This document shows, piece by piece, positions 22,965 through 25,049 of a stretch of 64,000 nt of DNA (positions within the stretch are counted from its first letter, which is position 1; the number at the start of each line of letters is the position of its first letter). Position numbers and translations under genes: made by a program. The DNA lies in the NCBI GenBank assembly GCA_040006915.1, contig JBDTWD010000002.1:158475-222474 (forward strand), written 5' to 3'. The stretch comes from Candidatus Woesebacteria bacterium. Lineage in GTDB: Bacteria; Patescibacteriota; Microgenomatia; UBA1400; UBA12028. Below the pieces are notes generated by a model that was not told where the DNA came from, ran no database searches, and worked only from the letters and a program-made list of their open reading frames with translations.

Positions 22965-25049
22965 ATGCAGGGAAATACTTTTTTTGCCAAAACCATCACA
23001 CTTGCAAGTAGCGCCGTCTTGATTGGTTTAGCTTTCCTGTCTCCACTACTCTTCTTTCCATTCGTAACCGAAATGTTTGATAGCAGCAAATGGTTTTTGA
23101 CTACCATAGTGGCTCTAGTCTTTGTCATTGGATTCGCGGTTGTCTCACTGCTTCGCCGTCGGATTGAAGTCTCGCGTTCTCCATTAACGCTTGCATTTTT
23201 AGTTTTTGGAATCGTGACTGCTCTGTCAATTTTCTTCTCTTCCCCAAATAAGTCATTGGTAGTAGTAGGCAGTGGAATGTTCCTAATCGCTCTCTCTCTC
23301 CTCTTCATCACCGGATCCACATTGATCCGTTCTCGCATCACCACTTCTTTGATGCTCGCACTTGGGAGTGCAGGAGTACTAGTAAGCTTAATTTCTATCT
23401 TAGAAAAAGTCGGGGTCGGAGTCGGATCAATGATGGGTGCAAGTAGTGCTGCTGCAGGTCTATTTCCAAATGGTGGAGCTCTGGTAAACACTACAGTTTT
23501 GGGGGTCATCTTTGCCATGTTGATCGCTTTCGCATTCACCCAAAAAAGTATAGCCATGCGAATCGTCGGTATTTCTTTTTCGACTTTTATCCTCCTGGGA
23601 TTAGTCCTCAATCTCTTCCTCATCCTTCCTGGCAAACCTCAAACACCTGTATTCCTAGGGTTCACAGAAAGCTGGAGTATTGCACTCGATGTATTGAAGA
23701 ATCCGAGAACCGCTCTAATCGGAGTGGGACCAGAACAATATGTACAAGCTTTTTCTCTCTTTAAGCCTGCCACTTTAAATCAAGGCCCTTACTGGTTTGT
23801 GCGATTCAGTGGTGCCCACAACTTGCCACTCGATATTATCGTCACTCACGGTATTTTAGGACTTGCAGCATTAGTATTGATTGCACTCGGAGTCTTAAAT
23901 CAGATTAGACACACGCAAAAGCAAGATTTGCCGCTCTTAGTTGGGGTCCTTGCTATCATTGTGTTGTTTTTAGTCTTGCCAGCCAGTCCGGTATTGTTTA
24001 CTTTGTTAGTTCTTTTCTTAATCGCGCTGCAAGCCGCGAATCTCAGCAATCCTCAGGGAGAAGGAATGAAGTCACAGTTCGTCTTACTCTCAGCACACGG
24101 TGGCAGCTCTCATGATGAGCGTCATGTGACGACAGGCTTGATTGCCATCATCTGTGGAGTCGTCGTCGTTTTAGCGATTGCAGGTCTCTACTTGAACACT
24201 AAAAACCTCATTGCTCGAGCAGTGTACAACCAAGGGGTCCAGGCGGTAAAAGATAATAAAGCCAAAGAAGCCTACGACTTTACTCGCCAAAGTATCGTTA
24301 TGGCTCCCTACCTCGAAGAGGCCAGGCGCTCCTTCGCTTTGATTAATTTGACCATTGCTCAAGGGATGACACAGAAAAAAGATCTTACAGACGACGAGAG
24401 AAAGACAGCTATCCAGTTGGTTCAACAAGCGATCAATGAAGGCAAAGCAGCAGTTGCCTTAAACCCGACAGATAGTACCAACTGGCAAACCTTAGCGACG
24501 ATCTATAATGCTTTAATTGGTAGCTCTAAAGATGCTCCAAACTGGACAGTGGCTGCGTATTCCCAGGCAGTGATCCGTAGTCCTGCAGACCCAAACCTTC
24601 GCTTTAACTTAGCTGCAGTGTTCAAACGCGCTGGAAATATCGATCAAGCGCAGCGTTTCTTCGAACAAACAGTGCAGCTGAAGCCTGACTATGCGAATGC
24701 TTGGTTTAATCTTGCCGACATCGCCAAGATCCAAGGCAAAAAAGAACAGGAACTCACATATCTTTCAAAAACCCTATCTCTTATCAAGACCTCTGATGAG
24801 AACTATCCGAAGATTAAAGCACAAGTGGATGCCTTGACCAAAGAACTCGGCGACAAAGCCAAAGCAGCTACAGACAAAACTCAAGCGGCTACCCCATCAG
24901 CCACACCGAGGCCATCCGCTTCACCAGCTCCTTCACAGAAGCTAGAGACTATTGAGCCCGCTACCTCAAGTGGAAAGACTCAAGTAGAGCTCTCAAAAGA
25001 TTCTGGAGTGGCCAGTCCATCGGCAATCCCTGATGTTCCGAAACAATAA
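22965..25049 (+). CDS. O-antigen ligase / PglL-TfpO-family (Wzy_C) polytopic membrane protein with a C-terminal TPR domain; candidate protein O-oligosaccharyltransferase.
   Basis: About 10-12 predicted TM helices in the first ~420 aa. A large loop carries the Wzy_C-like motif PYWFVRFSGAHNLPLDIIVTHGILGLAAL (conserved His-Asn in the periplasmic loop). The C-terminal ~270 aa contain TPR-like repeats (AYSQAVIRSPADPNLRFNLAAVFKRAGNIDQAQRFFEQTVQLKPDYANAWFNLADIAKIQG) followed by a Ser/Pro/Ala-rich tail. Confidence 0.6.
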   Translation: MQGNTFFAKTITLASSAVLIGLAFLSPLLFFPFVTEMFDSSKWFLTTIVALVFVIGFAVVSLLRRRIEVSRSPLTLAFLVFGIVTALSIFFSSPNKSLVVVGSGMFLIALSLLFITGSTLIRSRITTSLMLALGSAGVLVSLISILEKVGVGVGSMMGASSAAAGLFPNGGALVNTTVLGVIFAMLIAFAFTQKSIAMRIVGISFSTFILLGLVLNLFLILPGKPQTPVFLGFTESWSIALDVLKNPRTALIGVGPEQYVQAFSLFKPATLNQGPYWFVRFSGAHNLPLDIIVTHGILGLAALVLIALGVLNQIRHTQKQDLPLLVGVLAIIVLFLVLPASPVLFTLLVLFLIALQAANLSNPQGEGMKSQFVLLSAHGGSSHDERHVTTGLIAIICGVVVVLAIAGLYLNTKNLIARAVYNQGVQAVKDNKAKEAYDFTRQSIVMAPYLEEARRSFALINLTIAQGMTQKKDLTDDERKTAIQLVQQAINEGKAAVALNPTDSTNWQTLATIYNALIGSSKDAPNWTVAAYSQAVIRSPADPNLRFNLAAVFKRAGNIDQAQRFFEQTVQLKPDYANAWFNLADIAKIQGKKEQELTYLSKTLSLIKTSDENYPKIKAQVDALTKELGDKAKAATDKTQAATPSATPRPSASPAPSQKLETIEPATSSGKTQVELSKDSGVASPSAIPDVPKQ

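Follow-up and report, generated by a model that had tools for sequence, protein, structure and literature searches.

What might an O-antigen-ligase-like protein act on in a bacterium that is probably a monoderm? The question is raised by a gene in a 64-kb stretch of a metagenome-assembled genome (MAG) of Candidatus Woesebacteria, a lineage of the candidate phyla radiation (CPR, Patescibacteria). We call this whole stretch the window, and coordinates refer to it unless a related locus is named. The gene (22965..25049, plus strand) is a complete open reading frame (ORF) for a protein of 694 aa, exactly as an original prediction made from the letters of the DNA had described it, and it joins a membrane domain to tetratricopeptide repeats (TPR) and a low-complexity tail. 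The protein is strongly diverged but belongs to the WaaL/Wzy_C fold superfamily, and it is best explained as a polytopic glycosyltransferase of predicted GT-C_B fold that works on the outside of the cytoplasmic membrane in a monoderm Woesebacteria cell. Tentatively, and with a little less than even confidence, we take it by analogy for a predicted protein O-oligosaccharyltransferase (O-OTase)-like enzyme of the WsfB/PglL type. It is a divergent form of a known Wzy_C-superfamily transferase with an external TPR domain, not a new kind of system.

The host itself narrows the choice of acceptors. The RadA encoded in the window has 100% identity to a RadA from a Candidatus Woesebacteria MAG. The CPR have been placed within a monoderm clade (bioRxiv 10.1101/2021.05.31.446380), and since the genome is a Woesebacteria MAG in that clade, the lipid A-core acceptor of WaaL is implausible. 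The original prediction had spoken of a probable monoderm lacking lipopolysaccharide (LPS) genes. Its first half is well supported by the Woesebacteria host and by a sortase with an LPKTG substrate, and its second half holds for the 64-kb window, in which there are no outer-membrane or LPS genes.

A chance ORF can be set aside, because a database search returned 58 full-length homologs and a profile of the transmembrane (TM) domain recovered 3,064 cluster representatives at E ≤ 1e-30 (11,710 at 1e-10 and 30,445 at E ≤ 1e-3; clusters at 50% identity). The homologs are 519-813 aa long, and all have a hydrophobic N-terminal region of ~430 aa followed by TPR. With a length of 600 aa or more, 140 of the 148 top-ranked representatives therefore have the same architecture. 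The G+C content of the gene (0.45-0.47) is the same as that of its flanks. An antisense ORF of 232 aa (22937..23635, minus strand) was rejected as a gene: it falls wholly within the conserved coding region of the target and is almost certainly spurious. The family is abundant but uncharacterized: members are labeled 'hypothetical protein [Candidatus Amesbacteria bacterium]' at NCBI and 'O-antigen ligase/TPR repeat protein' at JGI, and we found no study of this architecture in CPR or Saccharibacteria. The single gene call is not very surprising, the second label having already been given to relatives by some pipelines. The only hit of a single-protein search of genome contigs was a TPR fragment from a Desulfovibrionales MAG, and a search with a hidden Markov model (HMM) of the TM domain found no paralog in the window or in 13 related loci.

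The assignment to the superfamily comes from the fold and from the relatives. An AlphaFold2 model of the 694-aa protein (pLDDT 86.8, pTM 0.85) gives the membrane domain a WaaL-type (GT-C_B) fold with 11 TM helices (residues 3-25, 39-64, 73-92, 96-120, 126-149, 172-192, 196-219, 287-315, 319-337, 342-361 and 383-429), with which hydropathy agrees. Structural similarity to WaaL is far above that to SEDS proteins (21.3 vs 9.6); RodA and FtsW are much weaker matches than WaaL, and there is no match to a SEDS family of Pfam. The Pfam profile Wzy_C (PF04932) scores 17.9 bits on the query (E 0.0029, residues 176-303) against a gathering cut-off of 31.7, and the query's 'O-antigen ligase' label is not established by the profile score alone. 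Scanned singly, 21 of 56 full-length relatives match Wzy_C at E ≤ 0.01 (best 4.6e-15), as do 9 of 23 TM-only sequences, and a Pfam scan of the 56 relatives found no other membrane family. Fold and relatives together bear out the Wzy_C-type assignment of the original prediction. Among curated subfamily models, that of the O-OTase TfpM is the only one matched by any member (1 of 23, E 2.7e-6); the polymerase-type NCBIfam models have no match in any member tested, and the query itself reaches nothing in NCBIfam beyond generic TPR-containing families, which score far under their cut-offs. The TM-domain HMM fails to detect E. coli WaaL.

The orientation of the protein in the membrane could be predicted from two features. 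The positive-inside rule is satisfied in all 56 relatives, with a mean Lys+Arg excess of 9.8 in predicted cytoplasmic over short external loops. Two strands, at residues 66-70 (just past RRR64-66) and 371-376, are paired in the model, which therefore puts the TM2-3 and TM10-11 loops on one and the same cytoplasmic side. From these observations it follows that the N-terminus is inside, that the loop of residues 220-286 is outside and that TM11 exits to an external TPR domain. The HN-containing loop and the TPR domain are thus both predicted to be extracytoplasmic, as the original prediction had supposed, and the loop is not placed in the cytoplasm. It forms four short helices in the model and holds most of the family-invariant residues.

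Beyond TM11, the TPR assignment is above the Pfam cut-offs over residues ~485-615 (TPR_17, 47.6 bits with a cut-off of 24.4; TPR_19, 31.4 with 25; TPR_14, 29.9 with 23.5; TPR_2, 28.9 with 27), with 11 helices across residues 433-641 in the model and structural matches to the TPRs of OGT, SPY and PilF. The length of ~270 aa first given for this module was too generous: the domain has ~210 aa, and 265 aa are reached only if the tail is included. The tail had been called Ser/Pro/Ala-rich, and S/T/P/A indeed make up 58% of it; such a tail is present in 55 of the 56 relatives, with 51% S/T/P/A vs 29% elsewhere in the protein. A short motif, [ILV]-x-L-[PS], recurs in 33 of 56 tails, whereas 500 shuffles gave 3.0 on average and never more than 8. 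Its typical form is 'PP-LELP-x-E-A-x-PP', and the query has 'VELSKDSGVASPSAIPDVP', with VELS at residue 674 (nt 24984 onward). The motif may serve for docking to the TPR domain or as a site of glycosylation. A sortase signal was rejected, since the motif has neither a TM segment nor a basic tail behind it.

Conservation was followed in two samples, the 56 full-length homologs and the 148 top-ranked cluster representatives. The family signature comprises K42, D/E242, K/R245, GxGP, K/R267, N272 and W277, and the key residues of the loop are W237, D242, K245, G253-x-G255-P256, K267-P268, N272, W277, R280-F281 and H285-N286. G255, W277 and G296 do not vary in either sample, G253 is found in 148/148 representatives and 55/56 homologs, G299 is invariant or nearly so, and W237, P256 and F281 are near-invariant. 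Among the representatives, Lys or Arg occupies position 42 in 100%, position 267 in 99%, position 245 in 95% and position 280 in 76%; N272 is kept in 99% and D/E242 in 92%. The prediction puts all of the conserved residues on the outer face. The string FSGAHNLPLDIIVTHG, which had been put forward as a conserved loop motif, is present at residues 281-296, and F281, G296 and the nearby W277 and G299 are kept across the family, but H285 is found in only 9 of the 56 homologs (the query, seven of its nine closest relatives and P0046) and 4 of the 148 representatives.

These features can be set beside those of characterized enzymes. WaaL (Cupriavidus metallidurans, PDB 7TPJ/7TPG; E. coli K-12) shares with the target a large external loop before a TM helix that opens with HN...G..G, and external basic residues suited to pyrophosphate binding. 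The two differ in that they have only 14-15% identity and that the target has 11 TM helices, an external C-terminus bearing the TPR domain and a host in a monoderm clade. The absence of LPS genes from the window, together with the wrong host and context, places the target outside WaaL proper, the lipid A-core:O-antigen ligase. The eukaryotic TMTC1-4 offer an analogy of function: these cadherin O-mannosyltransferases combine a GT-C membrane domain with a lumenal TPR domain, and the TPR on the non-cytoplasmic side selects protein acceptors. We use them as a works-like analogy with no claim of homology, since they differ in their GT-C_A fold, their Dol-P-Man donor and the transfer of a single sugar.

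Closer to the target in host and architecture is WsfB of Paenibacillus alvei, a predicted S-layer O-OTase that combines Wzy_C with a C-terminal TPR domain in a monoderm; in Geobacillus stearothermophilus, WsaB has a separate adjacent TPR partner, WsaA, and the combination of Wzy_C and TPR occurs also in PglL (PMC2943079). The target shares with WsfB and WsaB+WsaA the monoderm host, the pairing of Wzy_C with TPR, and the proposed transfer of a glycan from undecaprenyl pyrophosphate (Und-PP) to a surface protein. WsfB lies in or near the S-layer glycan (slg) locus, whereas the target has no glycan-assembly genes in 64 kb. PglL, PglS, TfpO (PilO) and TfpM also belong to the Wzy_C superfamily, and like the target PglL and PglS carry an external C-terminal domain, which is thought to aid protein recognition in the periplasm (PMC9829042). 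The genes for TfpO, TfpM and PglS adjoin substrate genes; the target gene adjoins genes for giant proteins, and two relatives adjoin pilin-like genes. These O-OTases differ from the target family in needing a conserved histidine (H286 in TfpM, H324 in PglS), which most of the family lacks, in their C-terminal domains, which are unlike a TPR domain of ~210 aa with an S/T/P/A tail, and in their diderm hosts.

If the target works like WaaL, PglL and PglS, the donor would be a glycan preassembled on Und-PP, the pyrophosphate of which would be held by the conserved external basic residues K42, K245, K267 and R280. The glycan would be transferred en bloc to a hydroxyl of the acceptor, and H285 in the query, or D/E242 across the family, may act as the base. 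The residues K42, K/R245, K/R267 and R/K280 are conserved and predicted to lie outside, which makes them candidates for this role. Architecture and neighborhood suggest that the acceptor would most likely be Ser/Thr of secreted surface proteins, first among them the LamG/Ig-repeat giants of the same block, and that the TPR domain would dock the acceptor or a partner. We infer a protein acceptor because there is no lipid A-core, because the C-terminal domain is external as in O-OTases, because the architecture is WsfB-like and because the neighboring giants are rich in Ser/Thr.

The genomic setting is in line with such an acceptor. The target belongs to a same-strand block (15-30866) whose products are, in order, 3624 aa, 2455 aa, 1554 aa, the target, 1556 aa and 341 aa long. 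Ser+Thr make up 22-26% of its block neighbors, which carry signal peptides or anchors, and no terminator- or promoter-like sites were found in the 57-bp and 120-bp gaps beside the target. We compared 12 loci, the window and those of 11 homologs with 21-75% identity. In 8 of them (the window, P0002, P0008, P0011, P0013, P0034, P0051 and P0055), a gene for a protein of >1200 aa lies upstream of the family member and on its strand, an association that reaches down to 21-24% identity and that in three of the eight loci is accompanied by downstream genes unrelated to those of the window. Giants downstream are found only in the window and in the close relative P0002. The presence of a giant surface protein upstream in 8 of the 12 loci fits a protein acceptor. 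In two loci (L002 and L012), pilin-like (N_methyl) genes are divergently adjacent to the gene. It also speaks for the O-OTase-like reading that the target does not lie in a Wzy/flippase/glycosyltransferase cluster in the window.

Several observations weigh against an O-OTase-like enzyme. No giant is found in 4 of the 12 loci, and tight, operon-like spacing to the giant occurs only in the query's clade, with intervening genes elsewhere. Because an Obg-M23/LysM-Rho-sortase(-RadA) block flanks the gene in 5 of the 12 loci, part of the synteny may be inherited gene order. The 64-kb window contains no initiating transferase, glycosyltransferase or flippase. In the two most distant members examined (P0058 and P0055, each of ~800 aa), the gene is followed after 7-23 bp, on the same strand, by that of a MurJ-family (MOP) flippase. 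Searches by sequence likewise gave little: phmmer with the TM domain and hmmsearch with the TM profile found nothing relevant among PDB sequences (SecG at E 0.021, a phosphatase at E 2.3), and hhalign of the family profile was not significant either with E. coli WaaL alone or with a profile of 25 enterobacterial WaaL sequences (probability 0.2). As these comparisons were not significant, R215, R288 and H338, which are invariant in the enterobacterial WaaL sequences, are not mappable onto the query with confidence. H285-N286 falls on H338-N339 of E. coli WaaL in the only local hhalign match, which is not significant alone.

The histidine is a further difficulty. Loss of the Wzy_C histidine is the look of polymerase-type Wzy_C proteins. 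The histidine is present in the query and absent in about 85-97% of the family, so the HN loop is not the conserved catalytic feature of the family. Its position is occupied in the 148 representatives by Ser (70), Arg (35) and His (4), close relatives at 52% and 41% identity already have Arg in its place, and the family alignment shows no conserved His elsewhere in the membrane domain. In characterized enzymes this histidine is needed for activity (WaaL, PglL, TfpM and PglS): H286A kills TfpM, and H324A is the dead control for PglS (PMC9829042, PMC12800693). Arginines are proposed to hold the pyrophosphate of Und-PP in Wzy_C enzymes (PMC9829042, PMC12800693). Judging from the alignments, the query is canonical-looking at the HN position, and the family appears to have evolved away from the canonical base. 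Members without the histidine may use another residue as the base, for which D/E242 is the obvious candidate, or may differ in chemistry or acceptor.

The same observations lend themselves to other readings, of which a Wzy-type polymerase, or a ligase for a non-protein acceptor such as a secondary wall polymer, a capsule-like layer or a glycolipid, is in our view rather unlikely but the least so. The TPR domain would then be a scaffold toward partners in wall synthesis or export, and TPR modules are known as scaffolds of polysaccharide export (reference cited in PMC2943079). The Wzy polymerases of O-antigen and enterobacterial common antigen (ECA) share the Wzy_C superfamily with the target and differ in having no external TPR and in lying within a Wzx/Wzz/glycosyltransferase cluster. 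They have external Arg residues instead of His, and a family that has lost the catalytic His yet keeps its external basic residues repeats this pattern. The MurJ-family flippases point the same way, as do the very large size of the family with one copy per locus examined, like a core envelope function, and the glycan-related genes found within 10 kb in 5 of the 12 loci (GLF+GT4; GT2/GT4; GT2+GalT; a PMT-like GT-C protein with glycoside hydrolases; and two GH130). However, no member matches a polymerase-type curated model, in the window and at most loci the gene has no cluster of Wzz, Wzx or glycosyltransferase genes around it, and none of the 12 loci has a classical Wzx/Wzy/Wzz cluster. O-OTases do have external C-terminal domains, the query retains the HN histidine, and to our knowledge characterized Wzy polymerases have no external TPR at the C-terminus.

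The MurJ genes, immediately downstream in L009 and L013, could also be taken to mean that lipid II or another Und-PP intermediate is used in concert with MurJ, sortase and the M23/LysM hydrolase, either in the modification of peptidoglycan or in tethering surface proteins or pili to a glycan. The Obg-M23/LysM-Rho-sortase block beside the gene in five loci and the adjoining pilin-like genes are compatible with such a wall role, which we nevertheless consider improbable: the fold is far closer to WaaL than to SEDS proteins, housekeeping neighbors may reflect inherited order only, and we know of no precedent for a WaaL-fold enzyme that uses lipid II. Nor do we put much faith in a catalytically degenerate WaaL-fold anchor or scaffold that displays the TPR domain and tail at the cell surface. 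It would account for the loss of the canonical catalytic His in most members and for the sub-threshold Wzy_C score of the query, but the strongest conservation of the whole protein lies in the external loop, the site of the active site in WaaL. With G253, G255, W277 and G296 at 100% and K42, K/R267 and N272 at ≥98% in the 148 representatives, it can be argued that a binding or catalytic site is preserved. The protein O-oligosaccharyltransferase put forward in the original prediction has on its side the topology, the WaaL fold, the precedent of WsfB and the giants in 8 of the 12 loci, and is weakened by the loss of His in the family and by MurJ beside two distant members.

If giant proteins are the acceptors of this O-OTase-like enzyme, their C-terminal ends may matter. 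The LamG giants upstream of the target and of its homolog P0008 all end in ...[VI]xFGPx[TI]G[SQ]P-COOH; two are in the window (18212-18241 and 22879-22908) and three in L001, where they stop at 751, 5297 and 9945. The endings read VRFGPVTGSP, VRFGPSTGSP, VFFGPATGSP, INFGPAIGSP and VNFGPSTGQP. A different module of ~55 aa, L[VI]Y[VIL]TP.GST.N.VLYV.S...G.F.VGFD....V.FNWWI[IV]N-COOH, closes giants of 946-3624 aa in four loci of different clades (window, ~10720-10889; L002, ~7780-7943; L012, ~7800-7964; L014, ~2680-2843). Pfam gave nothing significant on this module or on the 341-aa protein downstream of the target. Terminal peptides are common ligands of TPR domains, and the adjoining pilin is modified at its last residue by TfpO and TfpM, so the giant endings are candidate recognition elements; as a sequence pattern, the FGP-type ending may be a signal for C-terminal recognition or modification. 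A far-reaching extension, which we regard as unlikely, would be a CPR-wide, His-independent WaaL-fold system that matures the host-attachment surface: the TPR domain would read the endings of giant adhesins (...FGPxTGSP, ...FNWWIIN) or of pilins, and the enzyme, like TfpO/TfpM on pilin, would act close to their C-terminus, either by glycosylation or by covalent tethering to a glycan. If true, this would be the first general machinery for glycosylation or anchoring of surface proteins defined for Patescibacteria, with a catalysis unlike that of WaaL/PglL.

The CPR are ultra-small and mostly episymbiotic bacteria, whose attachment to hosts is ascribed to giant surface proteins and pili. Almost nothing is known of how their surfaces are constructed and decorated. 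A large and architecturally uniform family, often encoded beside giants, is a concrete candidate for a surface-glycosylation enzyme of the CPR, and its loss of His provides a natural test of how Wzy_C enzymes catalyze transfer. The family is thus a usable entry point both to CPR surface glycobiology and to histidine-independent Wzy_C catalysis. If active on proteins, it might also be a possible addition to the O-linking oligosaccharyltransferases for bioconjugate production.

Features of the WaaL-fold/TPR gene, its block, the sortase locus of the window, and the flippase genes of two related loci
Feature	Position	Strand	Remarks
Giant protein, 3624 aa	15..10889	+	26% Ser+Thr; no Pfam match (E ≤ 0.001); C-terminal module ...FNWWIIN
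LamG_3 x6 giant surface protein, 2455 aa	10874..18241	+	N-terminal signal anchor; ends ...VRFGPVTGSP
LamG_3 x6 giant surface protein, 1554 aa	18244..22908	+	57 bp upstream of target; ends ...VRFGPSTGSP
WaaL-fold/TPR gene (target)	22965..25049	+	complete ATG-to-stop ORF, 694 aa; membrane domain, then TPR, then low-complexity tail
Membrane domain	22965..24251	+	residues 1-429; 11 TM helices; N-terminus predicted cytoplasmic
Large loop, predicted extracytoplasmic	23622..23822	+	residues 220-286 (67 residues), between TM7 and TM8
Motif FSGAHNLPLDIIVTHG	23805..23852	+	residues 281-296; loop end and outer end of TM8; H285 = nt 23817-23819
TPR-type helical repeat, predicted extracytoplasmic	24252..24887	+	residues 430-641; ~5 helix pairs and a capping helix on long TM11
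S/T/P/A-rich tail	24888..25046	+	residues 642-694 (53 aa); disordered, pLDDT 35-52
Giant secreted protein, 1556 aa	25169..29839	+	Ig_Rha78A_N, PKD and fn3-like repeats; signal peptide; 120 bp downstream of target
341-aa protein	29841..30866	+	last gene of block; N-terminal TM anchor; no Pfam match; ortholog likewise placed in P0002 locus
Sortase locus	48922-56830	-	Gram-positive-type wall-anchoring system
Sortase	51451..52833	-	window gene
695-aa DUF11/NEW3-like protein	52869..54956	-	flanks sortase; ends LPKTG, TM segment, KRKG
619-aa Thr/Pro-rich lipoprotein-like protein	54971..56830	-	sortase locus
MurJ-family flippase genes	L009 12459-14153; L013 12413-14101	same as WaaL-like gene	LepA and DivIC further downstream

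Besides the sortase locus, where an 829-aa protein without a family match also flanks the sortase, the window encodes an M23/LysM hydrolase and an MprF-type domain. The counterpart of the 3624-aa giant in the P0002 locus (3679 aa) has precomputed MerR/HTH_17 matches, which are odd for a surface giant, and in L013 a small MerR gene immediately precedes the family member. The P0029 locus (L014 3469-17693) contains a same-strand cluster with a separate TPR protein of 381 aa and a GT-C protein of 648 aa of the PMT/PMT_2/TMEM260_N type, a second 'GT-C plus TPR' pairing at that locus; the cluster also holds glycoside hydrolases (Glyco_hydro_cc, GH172 and GH42-like).

Two tRNA-Ala genes with the anticodons CGC and GGC (36341-36412 and 36818-36891, minus strand) lie between a fn3-containing protein of 703 aa and the Obg region of the window. 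There, the Obg ORF (37637-39154, minus strand, 505 aa, with the Obg domain from residue 82) overlaps by ~200 nt an ORF of 450 aa without a family match (38959-40311, minus strand). Because Obg is 306-429 aa long in related loci, the long Obg start is probably an over-extension.

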